The position numbers and the translations under genes were made by a program. Below, one piece after another: positions 18,837 to 38,189 of a stretch of 64,000 bases of DNA. Each line of letters starts with the position of its first letter. Positions within the stretch are counted from its first letter, which is position 1. Source of the stretch: Nitrososphaeraceae archaeon (GTDB lineage Archaea > Thermoproteota > Nitrososphaeria > Nitrososphaerales > Nitrososphaeraceae). The notes under the pieces are model-generated. The model was not told the origin of the DNA. It did not search any database and saw only the letters and a program-made list of their open reading frames with translations. The DNA lies in the NCBI GenBank assembly GCA_035250975.1, contig DATFEP010000047.1:1-64000 (forward strand). Direction: 5' to 3'.

Positions 18837-19412
18837 TTAGACAATAACTACTGTTCCAACCATGGTTGGATGTAATATACAGAAATAAGGAAATGTCCCT
18901 ACTTTGGAGAAAGTATGAATATAGGTATTTCCGGAGAATATTATTGGTGAGTCAAATTCCTTGCCCTTGTTATTGTCTTTCAATCCAAAACCTGACGTCA
19001 CTGTATGTAGTGTATGATCTACGTTATGCCAGCTTACTGTGGTGTTAGGCCCAATAATTAAAGGATTAGGATTATATGCCTTATCACCTAGTAATGTAGC
19101 GTCAAAAACAATTTGAACACTTATGTTAGATGTTCTTTTTTGTAAACCTTCCATAACCCTATAATTCCATGTCATATTTACATTTGATGAGTTTTCAGGA
19201 GAAGCATTTAAAGATGATTTTATTTCTTTTTGTTCTTGTCCTAACTGGTTTATAGGTTTAAATGCAAATGTGTATTGACTAAAAAAATAAAAGGATAATA
19301 ACCAATTGACTGAAAGGACAAAAGAACTTAGCAAAACTATCGACAACATTATTTTTATCGTACCATCATACCTTAGAAAAAAGACAGGAGAAAATCGCCT
19401 AAATACTGCCAT
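18837..19412 (-). CDS. Membrane-anchored plastocyanin-like blue copper (cupredoxin) protein
   Basis: VSWHNVDHTLHTVTSG and YFCILHPTMVG type-1 Cu ligands (H, C, H, M). Confidence 0.9.
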   Translation of the reverse strand: MAVFRRFSPVFFLRYDGTIKIMLSIVLLSSFVLSVNWLLSFYFFSQYTFAFKPINQLGQEQKEIKSSLNASPENSSNVNMTWNYRVMEGLQKRTSNISVQIVFDATLLGDKAYNPNPLIIGPNTTVSWHNVDHTLHTVTSGFGLKDNNKGKEFDSPIIFSGNTYIHTFSKVGTFPYFCILHPTMVGTVVIV

Positions 19413-21427: not shown

Positions 21428-22029
21428 TACGCCATTTTTTATTAATTAATAATACATAAGATTAGCGTAATTATCTTCTAAAAAATATAATACTATTGAT
21501 CATTGTTCTTATCGCAATGGATGAGATTATTTTTGTTTTATACAGAAACAATATAGAGAAAAGATTAAAATAGTTTTTAAAAAAAATATGATCAAATTCA
21601 GATGTAATTTAATAAAGTAATTTTTCCAAAATTTTTTGGCGGCGAAAAATTTAATATAGTTAATTTTGGCATTAAATCGAGTTTAACAACAATAAAAATT
21701 ATATAACATCTTTTCAAAAATAAACGAAACAAAATTACATTAGTGTAAAGAAAAATACGAAAAAAAAGTAAAATCATATTTAGTCGTTAATTCCGTGATT
21801 ATATATCTATGATGATATATGTGCCTTAATATAGTAGACAATTCATTTAAAACATCTTTTTTTTATAAACATAATTTAAAAATTTCTAATCAATAGACAT
21901 ATTAAGTCTGATACTATCCAGTGATTATAATTATATTTTTAATTTGAGAAATCTTAATTTCTTACAAACAATAATTAATTATAAGATAATAACAAGAAAG
22001 TATATTAACTAATAGCTACAATTGATCCC

Positions 22030-23139
22030 ATGACGTTAACTAAAAGATTAAGAAAGAATATTTCAAAGATTTCGTCTGATGAGCTAAAAGATTTCATAAA
22101 TGCTATTATTTCTTTAAATATTAATCCATCTTTTCGTTATCCTGGAAATAGGGATGATAAACCATTTGTGGGTGGAGTTAGTTTTTGGTTTAAACAAGAT
22201 GAAATTCATCAAGCTACACATGTTCATGGTGGTCCAGCCTTCCTTACTTGGCACAGAGAGTTATGTAATAGATTTGAACGACTCTTAAGATTGCATAACG
22301 AAAATATTTCTTTACATTATTGGGATTGGAATGAGGATCTTGAAGAAACAATTAATTCTGAATCTAAAGTAATTAATCTTTTTACAGGTCAACTTTTAGG
22401 TAATTCAAAAGGCGAAGTTGGAGATCCTTGGCGTAGTAACAACTTCTATAATCCATATCCTATAAACGATAACTATCGTGGAATTGAATCCTTTGATATT
22501 GAACATAGCAATCCAGCAGATCCCCCGTTAATAATAACTAGAGATAAACAAGATGGAACATTGCACGAATTTATGAAAAGAAATAATATTCGAATCTTTA
22601 CCGACGAGGAGATCATTACATCACAGACTTATAGGGAAATGAGATTTAAATTAGAACATATACATAATTGGGCTCATAATTATATTGGTGGTACAATAGG
22701 AGATCCTCATACTTCATTTTGTGATCCATTTGTGTTTCTTATTCATTCAAACGTAGATAGACTTTTTGCTGCCTGGCAATCATGTAAAAATTCTGAATGG
22801 AGACTGGACCCAGAGAAAGTGTATGGTGAAGATATAGAGAGTGTTGCCTTAGGTTCTACTTCCCCACGTGTAGTTGTAGGCATACAAACTTTGCTATCGC
22901 CCTGGTGCGGGATAGGGTATCCCTTTGAATATATTAATGATAAAACAAAGTTGAAAGAAGAACCAGGTGTTAAAGACGTAAGACCTTGGTCATATCCTGA
23001 AAATTCACATAGGGATCCTGAAATTCCTCATTATGAAAAACCAAAGAATTCATTAGATCGATCAATAATTAGACCAACATTGTATGATAAATACCCTGCA
23101 ATTGAGAATTTAGAATATAATACTTTTTTGGAGATATAA
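22030..23139 (+). CDS. Tyrosinase (type-3 copper) family protein
   Basis: CuA: EIHQATHVHGGPAFLTWHR; HYWDW; CuB: EHIHNWAHNYIGG...DPFVFLIHSNVDRL. Confidence 0.92.
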   Translation: MTLTKRLRKNISKISSDELKDFINAIISLNINPSFRYPGNRDDKPFVGGVSFWFKQDEIHQATHVHGGPAFLTWHRELCNRFERLLRLHNENISLHYWDWNEDLEETINSESKVINLFTGQLLGNSKGEVGDPWRSNNFYNPYPINDNYRGIESFDIEHSNPADPPLIITRDKQDGTLHEFMKRNNIRIFTDEEIITSQTYREMRFKLEHIHNWAHNYIGGTIGDPHTSFCDPFVFLIHSNVDRLFAAWQSCKNSEWRLDPEKVYGEDIESVALGSTSPRVVVGIQTLLSPWCGIGYPFEYINDKTKLKEEPGVKDVRPWSYPENSHRDPEIPHYEKPKNSLDRSIIRPTLYDKYPAIENLEYNTFLEI

Positions 23140-23140
23140 A

Positions 23141-25255
23141 TTGTCTATTCTACATTTTTCTGGAAAATTTAAATTCTATCCTCCTATCTATAATAACGAA
23201 CCAAGAAATCCTGAAAGATATTTTAATCCCACACTTGAGCCTGAAACTGTACTTACCAAAATAACTGATGGAGTAGACCCATTAAAATATTTTGAATTTG
23301 AATTTTTAAATGTTTATGTAACAAAGGTAACTTATGATGATGGTTCTTTTTCATTAAAAAAGGAGAAAGATCCTATTATTGGAAAAAAAGTCATTTTGAA
23401 AGGGCTTTTAGTAGATGTTTCTCCTCATTTAGAGAGAGGTAGATTGTTTGCTGGAGAAATTAGGATAATTGACTTTATAATGGGAAAATTAGAATTAGCT
23501 GTTCAATCAGATTTATTTAAAACTATTCGTAATGATACTGATAAAGGTGTTAAAATTCTCTCTGCAGATTTCGATTCCAAAATTTATAACCATAATTACT
23601 TGGAAAATACATTTCTTACAACTTCTAATTCCCGTTATTTACGCGAATTACAAATCAATTATTTTGGGATATATTTTAATGTAAGAAAATTTAGTTTTGA
23701 GTCACTTGAAGGAGAAATTAATGGTTACTTTGGACCTTATATACCAAAAGAAAATAGTGAAAGAATTAGACTTAGTGGAAGAAGGTTATTATTTAATCCA
23801 GAAATTGAATCTCAGTTAATCAAAGATTTTCATTTAAAGGATCCCGATAATATGTCTTCAGATATATTTCAGTATGATTCTGAAGATGTATTTAGGTATG
23901 ATTTAGAACTTGTTTATGACATAATAGAGGAAAAAAGAATGATAGTACTAAAGTATCTACATGCTATCCCATTTATTGATCAGAATGATAAAATTCCTAC
24001 AGATTACCGTTTTTTTATTGTTCTCTTATACAAAGGAAAAAGGATAAAAAATCATCACGAATCAGAGTTAGAATTAAAGCTTAAACCAAAAGATATTTTT
24101 GTATCAGGAGGAATACATACTGTGAAAATTCCTTTAAATATACAAGAATTTGATAAATTAAAAATCGAAATTGTGGTTACAAAAGATAATAATAATAATT
24201 TCTTTACCTATCTTAAAGAACCGCAATACGATTTATCATTAATCAACTATGAAAAGTTCTTGATATTCAAATCTAATGAGAAAAGAGAAATTAAGATCAA
24301 AATCTTTGAGGAAAATCGAAATTCCAACAAGGAAATTAATTTAGAAGTAGGCCAATATGATAATGATCGTTCTCCTACTGTTGCCCATTGGACCGATAAA
24401 ATAAATACAAAAAATGGAATAGCTACAGGTTATATCCAAGCACGAAATTTAGAGAATTCTGAAGAAATAGAAGATCCTACTCCAGGAATTGATCCAGATA
24501 CAAATAATATAAGAGTAAAATTAAATGGAGATCTTCCGTGGGATCGATATTATGGAAACTATGTTTATATAAGAATAAACAACCAAAAGGATAAAAAGCC
24601 ATTAATAAAATACAATATTCCGGTTCGTGTACTTCATGGTATTAACTTAGAAGAGGCACAAAGGGAAATAGACAGTTTAAACAAAGAAAGAATACAAGAA
24701 GTTGTTACAAAGATGCTTAGATATTATACTAGATATTATCCATGGCTTCACGTTGAATATAGGTATAGACCAACAAGTTCTAATATTCCTAAATTGGTCT
24801 ACAACCAATTTTTAAAAGTTACAGAATATTTGAATTTTATCGAAGAAGAAGATATAAGTCATTGGCATATTATTGAAAACACTATAACAAAAATTAATCA
24901 TTTTCTGGACAGATTGGAAAAGGATGATCATGACTGGAGTAAAATGCCGCGTTCTAGAGATTTTCCATTTAATGGAGTAGAATATTTGAAAATGTGGAAG
25001 ACAAGTATTATCGATAAAATGATAAAAGAAATTGAAGAACAAAGAAATAACATGAAGGATGAAAATTTAGATAAGATTAATTTTGGCAATTGGGAAGGTA
25101 TACAAGAACTTATTAATAAAATTGACAATCTAAATATGCGTATATCTGAACAAGATAAAAAATTAATTCTTACATGGAAAGTACAACTTTTAGAAGAAAT
25201 GGTAAAAATACTCACATATGCAAAAACTTCTACAAGGCATTTTCATTCTCATTAA
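23141..25255 (+). CDS. VioB/RebD/StaD-like protein (N-terminal region only; no ferritin-like domain seen)
   Basis: N-terminal LHFSGKF..PIYNNEP resembles VioB IHFRGW..PTANRD; LRYYTRYYPWL...KMPRSRDF...YLKMW resembles YYELVYPFM...YMPSTREL; starts 1 nt after the tyrosinase stop. Confidence 0.55.
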   Translation: MSILHFSGKFKFYPPIYNNEPRNPERYFNPTLEPETVLTKITDGVDPLKYFEFEFLNVYVTKVTYDDGSFSLKKEKDPIIGKKVILKGLLVDVSPHLERGRLFAGEIRIIDFIMGKLELAVQSDLFKTIRNDTDKGVKILSADFDSKIYNHNYLENTFLTTSNSRYLRELQINYFGIYFNVRKFSFESLEGEINGYFGPYIPKENSERIRLSGRRLLFNPEIESQLIKDFHLKDPDNMSSDIFQYDSEDVFRYDLELVYDIIEEKRMIVLKYLHAIPFIDQNDKIPTDYRFFIVLLYKGKRIKNHHESELELKLKPKDIFVSGGIHTVKIPLNIQEFDKLKIEIVVTKDNNNNFFTYLKEPQYDLSLINYEKFLIFKSNEKREIKIKIFEENRNSNKEINLEVGQYDNDRSPTVAHWTDKINTKNGIATGYIQARNLENSEEIEDPTPGIDPDTNNIRVKLNGDLPWDRYYGNYVYIRINNQKDKKPLIKYNIPVRVLHGINLEEAQREIDSLNKERIQEVVTKMLRYYTRYYPWLHVEYRYRPTSSNIPKLVYNQFLKVTEYLNFIEEEDISHWHIIENTITKINHFLDRLEKDDHDWSKMPRSRDFPFNGVEYLKMWKTSIIDKMIKEIEEQRNNMKDENLDKINFGNWEGIQELINKIDNLNMRISEQDKKLILTWKVQLLEEMVKILTYAKTSTRHFHSH

Positions 25256-26005: not shown

Positions 26006-26215
26006 CCTTTTGTTCGGAGGATTTTAATCTCAGTTATAACATGGTTACCATAAAAGAATATAGTTGATCGTTCAAAACGTTTTGTTGACATCCCGTTGAT
26101 TTGAAACTCCTTTTAATACATTACAAATGGCTGTGTCATAAGAAAAATTAAAAATATAGTATCAAAGTTTGATTAGAAAGTAATATTAATACTAAAAAAG
26201 TCTCTTTTACTTTAA

Positions 26216-27893
26216 ATGGAAAAATGAAATTAATATACCTTCTAGACAAAGGGCTTTAGTATTTCAAGGTGGAGGCTCTCTAGGAGCTTATGAAGCTGGT
26301 GTTTTTCACGTTTTATGTCATTGGATTAAAAAAGATTTATCGGACAATGAAAATGTTTTTGATATAATTGCTGGGACTTCAATAGGAGCGGTTAATGCTT
26401 CCATAATTATTAACGATATTTTAGAAAAGAAGAACCAAGAAAAGTCATCAACAGAAGAAGCAGAAAAATATAAGAAAACTTTAAAATATTGGGAGGGCAC
26501 ACCTGAAAAGCTTATCCAATTTTGGAAGAATGTATCATCTAATACAAATACTCCCTGGGATCCTTGGAATCTGTATGATTTTTATACATCATTCATAGAA
26601 AGTTATGTGAAATTCAATTATCAAAATTATCTAAATTTATTTCCTTATTTACGAGAATTGTTACCATCATCAGAATCTTTTCGAAGATACTATCATACAC
26701 AAATGTCCTTAGTACGAGGAGAGTCACATATATTTAGTCCCTTATTTATCTATCCTTTTGCAACTCCAGTCCCAAACAAATTTTTTGATTATTTTTCACC
26801 GACCGCAAAATGGTATCAATACAGTAATCTTCCACTTAGACAGAGTATAGCAGGCTCAGCAAGTATGTTGAGAGATAACAACACAAAGAGAAGCGGAATA
26901 AGAACAGTTTACGACGAAAAAGAACCAAGACTTCTTCTTGTTGCTGTGGATATAAGTGAGGCAAAGAGTACCACATTTGACAGCTATAAAGAAGATATTA
27001 CAATAAATCATGTATTGGCTAGTGCAGCAGTACCAAAAAATTATCCATATGTAGATATAAATGGAAACAAATACTGGGATGGTGGAATTTTAAGCAATAC
27101 ACCAATAAGAGAGGTTTTAAGTGAGCATAGTAAATTGTGGGTAAAGAGATTGGGAATAGATGATTATGATTCGAGTTCACATTCGAAAAAGGATTTAAGC
27201 TATGAAAAGGAAAAAGAATGGTTTAAAGAGGAAGATGAACAAGATAAACGTAAAAATAAAGATAAAAATGAAAAAAGAATTCCTAACCTGGACTTGTGTA
27301 TAGTAAATCTATATCCATCAAAAGAAAAAGGGGAACAAATTCCGTCCCTATACGATTATGACTTTACAAAAGATAGAGAAAATGATATTAGATTTCATGA
27401 TAAGACAGAATATGATGTAAAACTGGCTAATGTAGTAACTGATTATAAAGATTTTGTAGAACGTATGGCAAAATTAGCAATTAAATCAATAGAAGAAATT
27501 AAAGATAAAGTTAAACTTGTTGCCGAACTAAAGGAAGAATTCATAGGTATCTTGGGTAAAAACCAAACAACACTTACTAGGGATGAAAAACCTAGGTATT
27601 ATTATGATCTTTTGCAAAAGAGGTTTGAGATTAAAAAAACAATTGAAATACAAAGAGAGGACGACATACATACAATTGCAAGCAAAGCCTTAGATTTCTC
27701 TTCAGCAACTATAAACCATTTAATTAAACAGGGAATTACCGATACACTTGATAAAATTTACCAAGACCAAAAAGAAAACGATAAAGAATCATTCAAACGA
27801 TGGCTATCTGGTTATATAAAAGATATAGAGAACCAAAGTACAAAAGATCTTTTAAATCCAGTTTTGGAATTTAAAGATAAAGAGAGGTTATAA
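26216..27893 (+). CDS. Patatin-like phospholipase (start disrupted by a +1 homopolymer shift)
   Basis: The frame is open upstream of track start 26607 and contains RALVFQGGGSLGAYEAG and IAGTSIGA; WDGGILSNTP lies downstream. ATG 26216 is out of frame by one A. Confidence 0.85.
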
Positions 27894-33928: not shown

Positions 33929-35500
33929 TCAAATCAATTGTATAAATTTGGCTTTTGATGGTGTTTCGTCTTTATTTAAAATAAATAACATATAATATCC
34001 AGGTGGTGCAACATTTGAATTATTTTCCATCTTCACAGTAAGTTCATTCTTTTTTGTATCTATTATTTCAAGCTCTATACATCTCTGATCTGTATTAAGT
34101 GAATGAGTAACCGAACTAGGTCGTATTATAGTAACTAAAGTAATTTCTTCTGCCTGATCTGATTCTATTAACATATCTTTGCCATAATTTACTTGCTTTG
34201 TGACATTTTTTATAATTGGACGAGATAATCCTGAAATATTATCCTCCATCAAATAAGGTGGTGTGAATACTTCAATCCTGTATTCATCATGTTCTCTATC
34301 TTCATTCCATTCTTTGTCCGTACCGCTTGTCATAATGGTACCATCAGCAAGAAGTAATGCATTTGCATGATACAACCTAGGTACTTTCATTTCATTTAAT
34401 TGTGTCCATGACTCATTTTCAGGATCATAAAGGTCGGCAGTTAAAACTGGATCTTTTCCTGCATCCGATTTTCCTTTCTCAGTCCCATTTACAACTAAAA
34501 CTTTCTTATTCGGGAGTAACACTGCATCAGGCATTACCCTTGTAAAATTCATTTTTGCTGTATATTGCCACTGAGGAGTTTCTGATTTTAAATCTTGGTT
34601 AGCATGTATTTTTATTATTTCACAAGTATCTGTTGCACGAGTATCGATATCTGGATCATCTGACTTTCCACCTCCACCGATTAACATTATTTTAGCTTCC
34701 AAAGAATTAAGATTGAAAGGAAGAATAACGCTTGTTCCTTGTACTGGATTGGTTCTGGAATATTCATAGTTTGTATGTATTTCCAGTATTTTATTTGTAG
34801 ATTTAGATTTTACCCACAAATTATTTTTAACATCATAAAATCTGGTTGTTCGCTCTGAATGAACAAAAATATGTCCGTTTGGCAACAAATATAAAAATGG
34901 ATATAATCCTAACCTAAATGGAATCTTTTGTATCTTTTTTAGTCCTGTTTTTTTATTGTAAATTTCTAATCTGTTATTTACAAAATTAAATGGTCCGACT
35001 TTTTTAACTCCATATATTCCATAACTACCAGAAACAATTACAATACTTCCATCAAAAACAGAAACGCATGATGGATACCATCTGGCTAAAAAAGAACGTT
35101 TCGTTAATTTCCATTCATCGTTATCAACTGAAAATGTATGTGTACATATACTTGGTGGATCAACTAATAAAATAGGATTATGAATTGTTTGATATTGACC
35201 TCCAGAAACAAATAAGTCTCCATCATCTAAAAAACAATGACCACCACAAAATACGTTCTTTTTAATTCTTTTTGGCTCTTCTCCTGTCCAATTTTCTACA
35301 TCTATAATTTCATATACACCATAGTGTGACGCACTTCCAAAGAGACTATGGGGGTGCTCTTTACCATTATGATCATGCTCTTCCTTACTTGGATACGAAA
35401 AAAGAATGATTTTGCCATTGTTTAATAAAGCAGCATGTATTCCTACAATTCGAGAATGATACTTTACATTCCACTCTCCATTACTTTTCGATACAGACAA
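33929..35500 (-). CDS. Copper radical oxidase (galactose/glyoxal oxidase-like, AA5/GlxA type) with C-terminal Ig-like (DUF1929-type) domain
   Basis: FCGGH (Cys), RWYPS and LYPF (Tyr), PRLYHANALLLADG (Tyr-His), SVTHS (His), APPGYYMLF. Confidence 0.92.
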   Translation of the reverse strand: MSVSKSNGEWNVKYHSRIVGIHAALLNNGKIILFSYPSKEEHDHNGKEHPHSLFGSASHYGVYEIIDVENWTGEEPKRIKKNVFCGGHCFLDDGDLFVSGGQYQTIHNPILLVDPPSICTHTFSVDNDEWKLTKRSFLARWYPSCVSVFDGSIVIVSGSYGIYGVKKVGPFNFVNNRLEIYNKKTGLKKIQKIPFRLGLYPFLYLLPNGHIFVHSERTTRFYDVKNNLWVKSKSTNKILEIHTNYEYSRTNPVQGTSVILPFNLNSLEAKIMLIGGGGKSDDPDIDTRATDTCEIIKIHANQDLKSETPQWQYTAKMNFTRVMPDAVLLPNKKVLVVNGTEKGKSDAGKDPVLTADLYDPENESWTQLNEMKVPRLYHANALLLADGTIMTSGTDKEWNEDREHDEYRIEVFTPPYLMEDNISGLSRPIIKNVTKQVNYGKDMLIESDQAEEITLVTIIRPSSVTHSLNTDQRCIELEIIDTKKNELTVKMENNSNVAPPGYYMLFILNKDETPSKAKFIQLI

Positions 35501-35660: not shown

Positions 35661-38189
35661 ATGTCCTTTGAACTTAAAGGAACTCTAACTGATTCTACTG
35701 GAAACGCTATACCAAATCATACAATAAAAGCATTTGATAAGGATCCGCTAATCGATCTTTTAGGCGATGACCCTTTAGGAAGTTCTGTTACTCTTGATGA
35801 TGGCTCGTTTAAAATAACTTTTTCAAAGGAAGATTTTAAAAAACCTGCTGAATTTTGGGAATCAGTAACCAATGAACCTGAGTTATATCTAAAAATTTTT
35901 GATATAGATGGAAAGATAATACATCAAACAGGAATAATGAGCGATCCATTTTCACCATATGTTGATCCTGCTGATATTAATCAATGTGAGGCTGTGGTTG
36001 TAGGCTCTGGATTTGGAGGTACCATTGTCTCTTTATCATTGGTAAATAAATTCGTAAGTGATGCTACAGCTCCCGGTTCAGAAAAAAAGAAAGTTGTTAT
36101 ATTAGAACGTGGACAATGGTGGGTTAGTCACGAATTACCATTAAGCCCAGGTTCACATGAATTTGAAAAAAAAGGTAAACTAGGAAAGGGAATAAGAGAA
36201 TTCTTGGAGACAAATGATATGCCTTATAGAACATGGCCTTATCCAGATAATCTAAATGGATTATCACAATTTCTTAAAACTGTTCGTGTAATAGATAGAA
36301 GAGGATTATATGACTATAGAATATCTAATAAAATTCATACACTTGCTGCAAGTGGCGTTGGCGGTGGTTCCTTAGTTTATACAAATGTTACCGAGAAACC
36401 TCACGATAGCGTCCTCGATTCCTGGGATAGTGATCTAGATCTTGGAATAAATGCATCCAACTTGTCACAATATTTTGATATGGCACGAGGTTTTATTGGC
36501 GTAAATAAGATTGCAACTACAACATCGATTGGTGATATTAAACTTCCAAAGTCAAAGGTATTTCAGGAGGCTGCAGAAAAAATAAGACAACAATCTCCAG
36601 GTATTGTTACCAATAAATCTTCTTTTGACACTTCTGATCCTGGCCAAAATCCTTCTGATTATGAAGAAGATATTTATGCAGTAGATCTTTCTATTACAGA
36701 CATTCCCTATAGAAAAGATGAAGATACTTTATTTAAAAAATCGCCTTTACTTTTAGACACATCCGGAAAATATTCATTTTCAACCATATTAGATGCAATT
36801 GATGGAGATCCACCAAATCCAGATCCAGCAATGACGAAACTCTTAAGGGAAAAATTAGCAAATTTATTAAGAAAACATTTTCCAGAAACAAATGCATGTC
36901 AACGTCAGGGAAGATGTGCATTGGGATGTATTCCAGGTGCAAGACATACAAATAATAAAAAGCTATTTGATTATCTGAAAGATGATAAAAAGAAAGAGCA
37001 TCTTCTAGTACGTGCCTTATGTGAAGTTTATGATATAGAACCATTAGCACCAGGTGCTTTCAAATATAGAGTTTATTACAATGATTATGGTGCTAGAGAT
37101 AAAAAAGAAGAAAATTTTGACTGGAATGATGGTCCGAACTCGTACAAACTTTCAATACGGTTATTTAGATTAGTTGATGGTGGAAGGAAAAAAACAATTG
37201 AGTGTAAAAAATTGATTCTTGCTGCTGGATCTATAGGAAGTACAGAAATTTTGTTAAAGTCAATAAATACCACTAGACAGAATGGTCAGAAACTCGAATT
37301 AAGTGATAGACTTGGTAAGGGTTATTCAACGAATGGAGATTTATTGGGAGTAATAAATCCTACCAAGACAGACATTTATGCTACACGAGGTCCAATAGTC
37401 ACATCGGCAATAAAATTTAACGAAGGGTCAGGATTTGTTTATACTATAGAGGACAGTAATATTCCTAAGATGTTTGCAGGTGTATCAAAATTATTATCAA
37501 AGTCAAGTTCATTCAGAAAACTTCTTGGCTATGTAGGCAAAGGAGGAGTACAAGATATAATATCCATGATTACTCAAAATCCAGCTGGAATTCCTCTACC
37601 AAACATTGATTTTTCATTACAAATTTCTGAACAAGATCTTTCAAAGACTTTACTCCTTGCTGGAATGGGTACAGATACATCGGATGGTACAATAAAACTT
37701 CAAGAGTCATGGAAGAACAATCCAAACAGAGACATGAATGCATTGAATGTTTTAGACGTCAATTTTGACATGAATAAACTGGTACCATTGTTTAACAAAA
37801 TGAGAAATTCAATGGAGAAAATAGCAAGAGAAATAGGTGAAAAGGGTTTAGCAAGTTTTTCAACTCCATTATGGAATCCTTCTAACACAAATGAAAACTT
37901 GACTGTTGTTTTGCATAATTTAGGGGGTTGCTCAATGGGCAAGGATAGGAATAACGGAGTTGTTAATACTTTCGGCCAGGTCTATAAAGGAAATGGTTTA
38001 ACAATAACAGAAACGTATGATGATTTTCATGTTGTTGATGGTGGTATAGTTCCGTCATCTATTGGAGTCAATTCTTCTTTAACAATTTCCGCGTTGGCAT
38101 TTAGAATAGCAGAAAATCTTGTTGGTCATTCACATCTTCCTATAGAAGAGGTACCATTAGGAACAAAAACATTATACTTTCCTAAATAA
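35661..38189 (+). CDS. GMC oxidoreductase (cholesterol oxidase-like) with an N-terminal transthyretin-like domain
   Basis: VVVGSGFGG FAD site, ILERG, GVGGGSLVY, CQRQGRCALGC, LAAGSIGS, HNLGGC, VVDGG..P..GVNSSLTI. Confidence 0.9.
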   Translation: MSFELKGTLTDSTGNAIPNHTIKAFDKDPLIDLLGDDPLGSSVTLDDGSFKITFSKEDFKKPAEFWESVTNEPELYLKIFDIDGKIIHQTGIMSDPFSPYVDPADINQCEAVVVGSGFGGTIVSLSLVNKFVSDATAPGSEKKKVVILERGQWWVSHELPLSPGSHEFEKKGKLGKGIREFLETNDMPYRTWPYPDNLNGLSQFLKTVRVIDRRGLYDYRISNKIHTLAASGVGGGSLVYTNVTEKPHDSVLDSWDSDLDLGINASNLSQYFDMARGFIGVNKIATTTSIGDIKLPKSKVFQEAAEKIRQQSPGIVTNKSSFDTSDPGQNPSDYEEDIYAVDLSITDIPYRKDEDTLFKKSPLLLDTSGKYSFSTILDAIDGDPPNPDPAMTKLLREKLANLLRKHFPETNACQRQGRCALGCIPGARHTNNKKLFDYLKDDKKKEHLLVRALCEVYDIEPLAPGAFKYRVYYNDYGARDKKEENFDWNDGPNSYKLSIRLFRLVDGGRKKTIECKKLILAAGSIGSTEILLKSINTTRQNGQKLELSDRLGKGYSTNGDLLGVINPTKTDIYATRGPIVTSAIKFNEGSGFVYTIEDSNIPKMFAGVSKLLSKSSSFRKLLGYVGKGGVQDIISMITQNPAGIPLPNIDFSLQISEQDLSKTLLLAGMGTDTSDGTIKLQESWKNNPNRDMNALNVLDVNFDMNKLVPLFNKMRNSMEKIAREIGEKGLASFSTPLWNPSNTNENLTVVLHNLGGCSMGKDRNNGVVNTFGQVYKGNGLTITETYDDFHVVDGGIVPSSIGVNSSLTISALAFRIAENLVGHSHLPIEEVPLGTKTLYFPK

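Follow-up and report, generated by a model that had tools for sequence, protein, structure and literature searches.

A tyrosinase gene tightly coupled to that of a remote VioB N-terminal homologue in soil Nitrososphaeraceae: a candidate two-protein system for aromatic coupling

What might a copper tyrosinase do in an archaeon where its gene is followed, after a single base, by that of a large protein without a family assignment? The question is raised by a gene pair in a 64,000-nucleotide stretch of a Nitrososphaeraceae archaeon genome (GenBank assembly GCA_035250975.1, contig DATFEP010000047.1, positions 1 to 64,000 of the forward strand; hereafter the window). The upstream open reading frame (22030..23139, + strand) starts with ATG and encodes a tyrosinase of 369 residues, and the downstream one (23141..25255, +) starts with TTG and encodes a protein of 704 residues, hereafter the partner. 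At the junction (23137..23143, +), the letters ...gag ata TAA a TTG tct att cta cat ttt tct... place the TAA stop at 23137–23139 and one base ahead of the TTG at 23141, so that the 1-nucleotide spacing given in a first-pass annotation of this DNA can be read directly. The TTG start is credible because the N-terminus, MSILHFSG..., lines up with those of homologues. The same annotation called the partner VioB/RebD-like; VioB, RebD and StaD are described as enzymes containing heme, which join two imines (oxidised tryptophans) that a separate oxidase provides (PMC10851217, PMC10847564). The host genome (2.49 Mb, 94.6% complete, GC content ~30%) encodes archaeal AmoA (PF12942, E = 1.1e-118), and the nearest named homologues are found in Nitrososphaeraceae metagenome-assembled genomes, which together identify the host as a soil-type ammonia-oxidising archaeon.

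The identity of the upstream gene is borne out by a match to the Pfam tyrosinase domain PF00264 well above the gathering score (E = 1.4e-26; 94.6 bits versus a cut-off of 22.6), covering profile positions 6–213 of 214. In an alignment of 21 paired tyrosinases (A4), H60, H64, H66, H75, H212, H216 and H239 are invariant; the first four presumably form the CuA group and the last three the CuB group, an assignment that rests on position and known motifs rather than on structure. By sequence, the protein is a complete type-3 copper enzyme with an intact dicopper site. It also carries a conserved C-terminal extension (about residues 252–369), whose LSPW, DVRPW and N325/H327 motifs are likewise invariant in this alignment. 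The MelC2-type model NF047834 is matched weakly, at the N-terminus (66 bits versus a cut-off of 450), and the weak N-terminal similarity to the BagH and FevF models falls far under their cut-offs. Upon inspection of the N-termini, neither the tyrosinase nor the partner showed an obvious signal peptide.

To see how often the two genes stay together, we fetched 14 loci from genomes and 70 from metagenomes and clustered the open reading frames of the low-GC ones, with the window added. Loci were considered assessable if they contained the partner N-terminus with at least 300 nucleotides upstream, which gave 37 low-GC loci, including the window and not de-replicated. The tyrosinase gene lies directly upstream on the same strand in 32 of the 37, is divergent in three, and is missing from two (L072 and L073), the partner gene of L072 standing alone. 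Across the 32 same-strand loci, the intergenic gap ranges from −35 to +35 nucleotides and is mostly between −4 and +12. A further 33 loci were set aside by the assessability heuristic; among these, tblastn searches found a same-strand tyrosinase in L077, L081, L026 and L032 and one on the opposite strand in L065 and L006. The same-strand arrangement persists at partner identities down to about 31–34%, and a complete genome from a different genus (G086) carries the pair with a 4-nucleotide gap. No third gene is conserved around the two, the next commonest cluster occurring in five loci, and a flavin-dependent amino-acid oxidase of the VioA/RebO/StaO type is neither the upstream neighbour of the partner in the window nor conserved in the related flanks. 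Moreover, a tyrosinase insert of 12–13 residues is present in all 14 A4 sequences that accompany partners of ~700 residues and in none of the seven that accompany partners of ~590–625 residues, i.e. tyrosinase and partner subtypes vary together. Co-occurrence in other genomes, which had been suggested as a check, is thus found, and from gene order and sequence the pair is a conserved, self-contained and tightly coupled operon of soil Nitrososphaeraceae.

The partner starts MSILHFSGKFKFYPPIYNNEPRN, contains RYYTRYYPWLH and KMPRSRDFP, and has HFHSH as its last residues. The features initially singled out in it, namely the LHFSG start, the late YY..YP and MPRSRD motifs and the HFHSH end, are all present, and their conservation in an alignment of 22 family members (A1) sets them apart from chance. 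Residues G8, F10, N18/N19, Y528, Y529, R531, Y532, P534, W535, H537 and M602–P609 are invariant or nearly so in A1, which displays the motifs ILHFSG.F..P.YNN.P at the start, followed by DP.KYFEF.F, LPWDRYYGN, RV(L/I)H, YY.RYYPWLH and KMPRSRDFP. A word-indexed search retrieved 96 homologues, every one annotated as hypothetical, in two size classes of ~700 and ~590–620 residues, and a search of 1.84 billion representative proteins with the A1 profile gave 222 matches at E ≤ 1e-3, 75 of them at E ≤ 1e-30. The partner matched no Pfam or NCBIfam family (E ≤ 0.1) and no PDB sequence, the search of the latter returning chance matches only (pleckstrin, E = 0.56). The ESM Atlas likewise provided nothing usable, with a feature score of 0.77 to phage clusters annotated as hypothetical and structural template-modelling (TM) scores below 0.3. 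The H-x-H-x-H end is found in all 11 A1 rows of ~700 residues, a 623-residue row (P0067) ends in HHHDHTH, and the His tail is absent from 10 rows of 578–619 residues. At two loci with short, tail-less partners (L046, 473–1645, and L049, 355–1554), the tyrosinases themselves end His-rich (...HHHND and ...HHD), as if the His tail could sit on either member of the pair.

Kinship with VioB is reached through a set of bacterial proteins that we refer to as the bridge family. These were retrieved as weaker matches of the A1 profile (E = 1e-8 to 1e-12), mainly over its first ~220 positions, and comprise ~570–610 residues, plus one protein of 1200 (P0238). Bridge and partner families share ~20% identity. 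An alignment of 13 bridge proteins (A2) contains, in the same order as A1, the motifs PRLHFSG.F..DPST.NN, V.Y.DG, GK.VDLDP, S.FL.EL, LSIKF.VD, GR..GTIGP, QYA.LYP.M and YMPVTRDLS, and hhalign aligned A1 with A2 over 512 columns (A1 columns 9–610) with a probability of 99.8% and E = 7.7e-29. The bridge superfamily is large, one search giving 121 matches, none functionally named, either fused to PF12902 (888–1079 residues) or stand-alone (~520–710 residues); in Pfam, PF12902 represents the C-terminal part of VioB/RebD. Bridge members with such a fusion include P0241 and P0238, the latter of which combines the VioB-N-like region with a PF12902 ferritin-like domain at 599–815 and a C-terminal OTU cysteine protease domain.

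When bridge proteins were scanned against NCBIfam, the sole match was TIGR04492, the equivalog model for VioB (iminophenyl-pyruvate dimer synthase, chromopyrrolic acid synthase), in six of nine, three of four and 12 of 14 proteins of three sets, with all scores far under the 1250-bit cut-off. Among bridge proteins without PF12902, residues 1–24 of P0221 match model positions 1–24, 51–87 of P0197 match 82–118, 243–600 of P0363 match 262–613 (E = 1.5e-9), 412–561 of P0263 match 455–590 (E = 2e-9) and 509–584 of P0222 match 507–583. The order of these matches is that of the N-terminal ~600 positions of the VioB model, the PF12902 protein of locus L004 matches positions 610–737, and both motif regions noted at the outset coincide with bridge–TIGR04492 match regions (positions 1–24 and about 455–613). 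The partner lacks PF12902 (E ≤ 0.1), as does the 94.6%-complete host genome (E ≤ 1). Plasmid tblastn and word-indexed searches for canonical VioB, RebD or StaD returned unnamed or ferritin-like proteins only, none annotated as VioB. The partner is hence best described, on profile evidence, as a remote homologue of only the non-ferritin N-terminal ~600 residues of VioB, not as a VioB: of the first-pass label, the N-terminal kinship stands, but assignment to the VioB/RebD/StaD enzyme type does not, with TIGR04492 matching none of the 22 family members and PF12902 missing.

An AlphaFold2 model of the partner (mean predicted local distance difference test, pLDDT, 80.8; predicted TM-score, pTM, 0.82) is beta-rich over residues 1–500, helical over 503–640, and continues with two long helices (652–696) and the His tail. 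Domain 1 (residues 1–235; 23141..23845, +) is an eight-stranded up-and-down beta-barrel, which holds the LHFSG.F...YNN.P start and is the part of the partner best conserved relative to the bridge family. Residues 361–501 (24221..24643, +) form an Ig-like beta-sandwich that ends in the invariant LPWDRYYGN and RVLH motifs. The helical region (residues 503–640; 24647..25060, +) contains the invariant YY.RYYPWLH and KMPRSRDFP and corresponds approximately to VioB-model positions 500–590; the bridge-family motifs aligned with them are QYA.LYP.M and YMPVTRDLS, which match TIGR04492 positions 507–584. Residues 641–704 (25061..25252, +) constitute a helical C-terminal extension with the HFHSH tail that is confined to the ~700-residue subclade. 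The domain 1 barrel may share the fold class of small-molecule barrels that template C–C bond formation, but the matches are middling (Z ≤ 9.4, a range rated as common). A Foldseek search of the full model against the PDB found only Ig or beta-sandwich arrays with TM ≤ 0.18, hence no solved relative and no VioB-type structure. Of the comparison with VioB by profile and fold that had been called for, the profile part was positive through the bridge family; no solved structure of the family exists against which folds could be compared. Prediction of a complex between the tyrosinase and partner residues 1–625 scored 0.01, which speaks neither for nor against binding.

The bacterial relatives of the partner indicate what else may occupy the adjacent position. 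At the high-GC loci, a gene for a PF12902 ferritin-like protein lies directly upstream of the partner homologue in six of 10 assessable cases (L004, L050, L051, L052, L053 and L061, several of them near-copies), and at L008 and L012 the upstream gene encodes a cyclase-AAA-TPR regulator. L004 and L051 also carry a LodA/GoxA-like oxidase; the host genome has no LodA_N domain. Besides its PF12902 gene, L051 encodes a divergent tyrosinase of 506 residues (PF00264, E = 3.5e-30), 27–31% identical to the archaeal ones, so that here the association recurs with a tyrosinase that is only distantly related. For a quick tree, we used 28 full-length genes of the loci and the window, 10 representatives and five bridge outgroups, with other rows left out. 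Rooted on the bridge proteins, it places the bacterial members at the base and unites the low-GC sequences in a clade with support 99, within which the branching order leads from members without a tyrosinase, through those with a divergent one, to those with a same-strand one (20 rows, support 99); the ~700-residue forms make up an inner clade of 14 rows (support 99). The adjacent slot is thus taken by a ferritin-like protein in the closest bacterial relatives and by a tyrosinase in the archaeal clade, where no ferritin-like domain turned up.

Several observations were made along the way on split and stand-alone modules. On a Mycetohabitans endofungorum megaplasmid (L086) and a Gloeothece verrucosa PCC 7822 plasmid (L087), a split VioB-N-like plus ferritin-like pair is found beside ebo-cluster-type genes; these are 3-dehydroquinate synthase, EboE, UbiA prenyltransferase, EboA and TatD hydrolase in the former, and 3-dehydroquinate synthase and TatD hydrolase only in the latter. 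A LodA/GoxA oxidase and an annotated 'tryptophan 7-halogenase' lie ~4 kb upstream of the split pair in L086. Plasmids of Rhizobium and Sinorhizobium often carry stand-alone PF12902 genes (e.g. H13, H60 and H84); the plasmid records matched number 174 in all, of which 114 are from Rhizobium and 17 from Sinorhizobium, and a GMC-family oxidoreductase is annotated beside the ferritin-like gene in three of the matches listed (two Rhizobium, one Pseudoalteromonas).

In terms of distribution, the pair is a rare accessory unit, because the partner profile matches only three of 301 sampled genomes of the order (the host genome, G086 and G278) and none of the eight other genomes searched of the same genus. 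The copy in G278 is broken, covering profile positions 324–583 only and containing TGA and TAA stops; it lies among five tyrosinase-domain matches within ~29 kb (contig C35, about 29100–57700, part of which is L089). Metagenome runs from 12 studies, which sampled soil, rhizosphere, sediment and wastewater, contain near-identical DNA. Contigs from soil metatranscriptomes (four runs, two studies) match the tyrosinase (22056–23107) and the 5′ part of the partner gene (23168–23602) at 98–100%; no weight attaches to the stretches that they leave uncovered.

As to function, we give about an even chance to the proposal that the pair is a two-protein system for oxidative aromatic coupling. With O2, the tyrosinase would oxidise a substrate of phenolic, catecholic or o-aminophenolic type, such as free tyrosine or a compound like 3,4-dihydroxyphenylalanine (DOPA), to a reactive o-quinone. 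The VioB-N-like partner would bind this quinone and direct a defined coupling or cyclisation in place of uncontrolled melanin formation, analogous to VioB, RebD or StaD, which join two tryptophans already oxidised by another enzyme. In the ~700-residue subclade, the HxHxH tail may bind copper, and the product, made in the cytoplasm, could be a pigment or another aromatic secondary metabolite. Such a capture-and-couple role fits the barrel of domain 1 as well as the mode of action of plant dirigent proteins. Ammonia-oxidising archaea have a copper-centred physiology, which would explain a dicopper enzyme in the place of the bacterial ferritin-like module.

A more tentative extension of this proposal, possible but on balance doubtful, is that VioB-type enzymes are themselves made of two modules, a substrate-templating N-module and an O2-activating four-helix metal module. 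The ammonia-oxidising archaea, with their copper-centred physiology, would have swapped the ferritin-like (iron/heme) module for a dicopper tyrosinase, giving a copper-driven, dirigent-like coupling to a defined dimeric aromatic metabolite or pigment.

A number of points weigh against the coupling proposal. Neither any of the 22 partner-family members nor the host genome matches TIGR04492, even at E ≤ 10; the tie between partner and VioB is transitive, running via the bridge family; and homology to the N-terminal part of VioB would not by itself show catalytic coupling. Across the whole superfamily no His or Cys is conserved, the family has no known heme motif, and the barrel matches of domain 1 have middling, commonplace Z values. 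No substrate-supplying gene is conserved near the pair in the clustered low-GC loci. The unit is as rare as described, with one of its three copies in the order broken and none in the eight congeners searched, and tyrosinase domains alone are commoner, occurring in 26 of the 301 genomes (a count that includes the unpublished G260 and G271). Finally, the contigs from RNA libraries never bridge the gene junction, and they may derive from DNA carry-over.

Alternative explanations are taken here in descending order of plausibility. The pair could be protective or detoxifying, the tyrosinase oxidising soil or root phenolics or making melanin and the partner merely binding quinones. Occurrence of the DNA in rhizosphere and soil metagenomes, a patchy accessory distribution that suits a niche trait, and a barrel fold that suits a binding protein are all compatible with this. 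However, lacking signal peptides, both proteins would act in the cytoplasm, and strict coupling to, and co-variation with, a conserved partner of ~600 residues suggest more than sequestration, so that we regard this explanation as unlikely.

Doubtful too is the notion that the partner is a helper of the tyrosinase, i.e. that, like MelC1, it serves as a caddie or copper chaperone, supplying the tyrosinase with copper or gating it without chemistry of its own. The shared operon would agree with it, as would the H-x-H-x-H tail of all ~700-residue rows, a plausible copper site, and the conserved C-terminal extension of the tyrosinase, which could need displacing. The forms of 587–624 residues, however, are equally coupled yet have no tail (L005, L040, L045, L046, L049 and L056), and with ~600 conserved residues in four domains the partner is far larger than known helpers. 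In addition, the protein paired with its nearest relatives is ferritin-like and not a tyrosinase, it has no Pfam match and hence none to the MelC1 family, and its gene lies downstream of that of the tyrosinase, as opposed to melC1.

A third alternative, which we hold to be improbable, is that the substrate of the tyrosinase is the partner itself. One of the invariant tyrosines in DRYYGN and YY.RYYPW would be oxidised to DOPA or a quinone, yielding a protein-derived cofactor or a cross-link, and the ferritin-like protein would do likewise in bacteria. The invariant tyrosine clusters of the partner (Y470, Y471, Y528, Y529 and Y532) lend themselves to this; furthermore, genes for LodA/GoxA-type quinoproteins are found near bacterial relatives (L004, L051 and Mycetohabitans), and maturase-type flavoproteins resembling QhpG and LodB near the pair in L003 and L005. 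Yet the wider superfamily conserves no more than single tyrosines, the host genome lacks a LodA_N domain, we know of no quinone cofactor reported for VioB-type enzymes, and this reading is entirely inferential. The weakest alternative, a chance adjacency of two independent genes, could invoke tyrosinase domains without a partner in many relatives (26 versus three of the 301 genomes) and the partner without a tyrosinase at L072 and L073, but is rendered extremely improbable by the 32 same-strand loci in 37, with gaps of a few bases down to partner identities of about 31–34%, by the co-varying subtypes, and by flanks that differ between loci.

Regarding the surroundings, the tyrosinase gene is preceded by an AT-rich intergenic region of 602 base pairs (21428..22029, +) without open reading frames of at least 80 residues, which is presumed to be the promoter region of the two-gene unit. 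A scan for sigma-70 promoters and terminators found 29 promoter-like sites versus 31.1 expected and no terminators, but is uninformative for archaea. We rejected the notion of a defence island, based on an EEP nuclease upstream and a patatin-like gene downstream, as these flanks are not conserved among related loci. The patatin-like phospholipase frame (26196–27893, +) runs uninterrupted between two stops for 565 residues and has GGGSLG and GTSIG motifs, but contains no ATG, GTG or TTG before 26607, and the listed open reading frame of 428 residues thus lacks the catalytic N-terminus; the gene either uses an unusual start codon or is decaying. The window further encodes a plastocyanin-like cupredoxin (18837–19412, −), a galactose/glyoxal-oxidase-like protein and a GMC oxidoreductase (listed intervals 33929–35500, −, and 35661–38189, +), two Sortilin/BNR-repeat proteins and a papain-like protease, none of which is kept beside the pair at other loci. 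Two other Nitrososphaeraceae loci (L003, 215–3313, and L005, 8659–12085) have, a few kb at most from the tyrosinase pair, an overlapping gene pair with a lodA-lodB-like layout, which encodes a protein of 680–789 residues without a family and a flavoprotein of 350–361 residues. The latter resembles maturases of quinone cofactors, namely QhpG, LodB and GoxB (E = 1e-18 to 1e-27, under the cut-offs).

What we regard as new here is a conserved combination of known enzyme classes together with an unrecognised superfamily; archaeal tyrosinases themselves are already known and characterised. A literature search, with most subscription journals outside its scope, found nothing on the pairing of a tyrosinase with a VioB-like protein or on Nitrososphaeraceae tyrosinases. 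Ammonia-oxidising archaea have hardly been explored for secondary metabolism, and a conserved, expressed-looking tyrosinase operon offers a concrete two-gene target; should the proposed module swap hold, few dedicated pathways to aromatic secondary metabolites would have been put forward for Nitrososphaeraceae before this one. The superfamily has no Pfam model. Its members, 'hypothetical proteins' of bacteria and archaea, number in the hundreds and share homology with the N-terminal two-thirds of VioB, RebD and StaD, a region that is itself uncharacterised. Its occurrence alone, fused to or beside a ferritin-like domain splits VioB into two evolutionary modules, which may help to locate the catalytic and heme sites of VioB, and the change of partner from a bacterial ferritin-like protein to an archaeal tyrosinase amounts to a natural experiment in the assembly of oxidative coupling enzymes. 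Were the partner to do no more than aid tyrosinase maturation, what remains would be an accessory protein of a new type for tyrosinases.

Among known systems, VioB, RebD and StaD share with the partner, by remote homology reached through the bridge family, an N-terminal region of ~600 residues with the LHFSG.F..NN and late Y..YP...MP.(S/T)RD motifs in the same order, and they act, as the partner would, after a separate oxidase encoded just upstream. They differ in that the partner has neither a direct TIGR04492 match nor the C-terminal ferritin-like PF12902, and in that their oxidase is a flavin tryptophan oxidase, whereas the neighbour here is a copper tyrosinase. Nor are there vioC/D/E-type or P450 genes near the pair, and the host is archaeal. 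The bacterial VioB-N-like family has the same domain order over ~600 residues and occurs as two genes or fused with an oxidase-type partner, as in the 'hypothetical' plus 'ferritin-like' pairs of Azospirillum sp. B510, M. endofungorum and G. verrucosa PCC 7822. Its partner, however, is a ferritin-like protein, some of its members lie beside ebo-cluster genes, and all are uncharacterised. The melC1-melC2 operon of Streptomyces likewise consists of two genes, for a MelC2-type tyrosinase and a dedicated partner, and its tyrosinase model NF047834 shares N-terminal similarity with the archaeal enzyme. By contrast, melC1 lies upstream of its tyrosinase gene, and the archaeal partner, at 704 residues and encoded downstream, is unrelated to MelC1 (no Pfam match); the archaeal pair also lacks a twin-arginine translocation (Tat) or other signal sequence, and its tyrosinase reaches only 66 of the 450 bits set by that model. 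For the barrel of domain 1, the systems for comparison are the dirigent proteins and beta-barrel pericyclases, represented by AtDIR6, PloI4, AbnU, Cyc15 and PyrI4.

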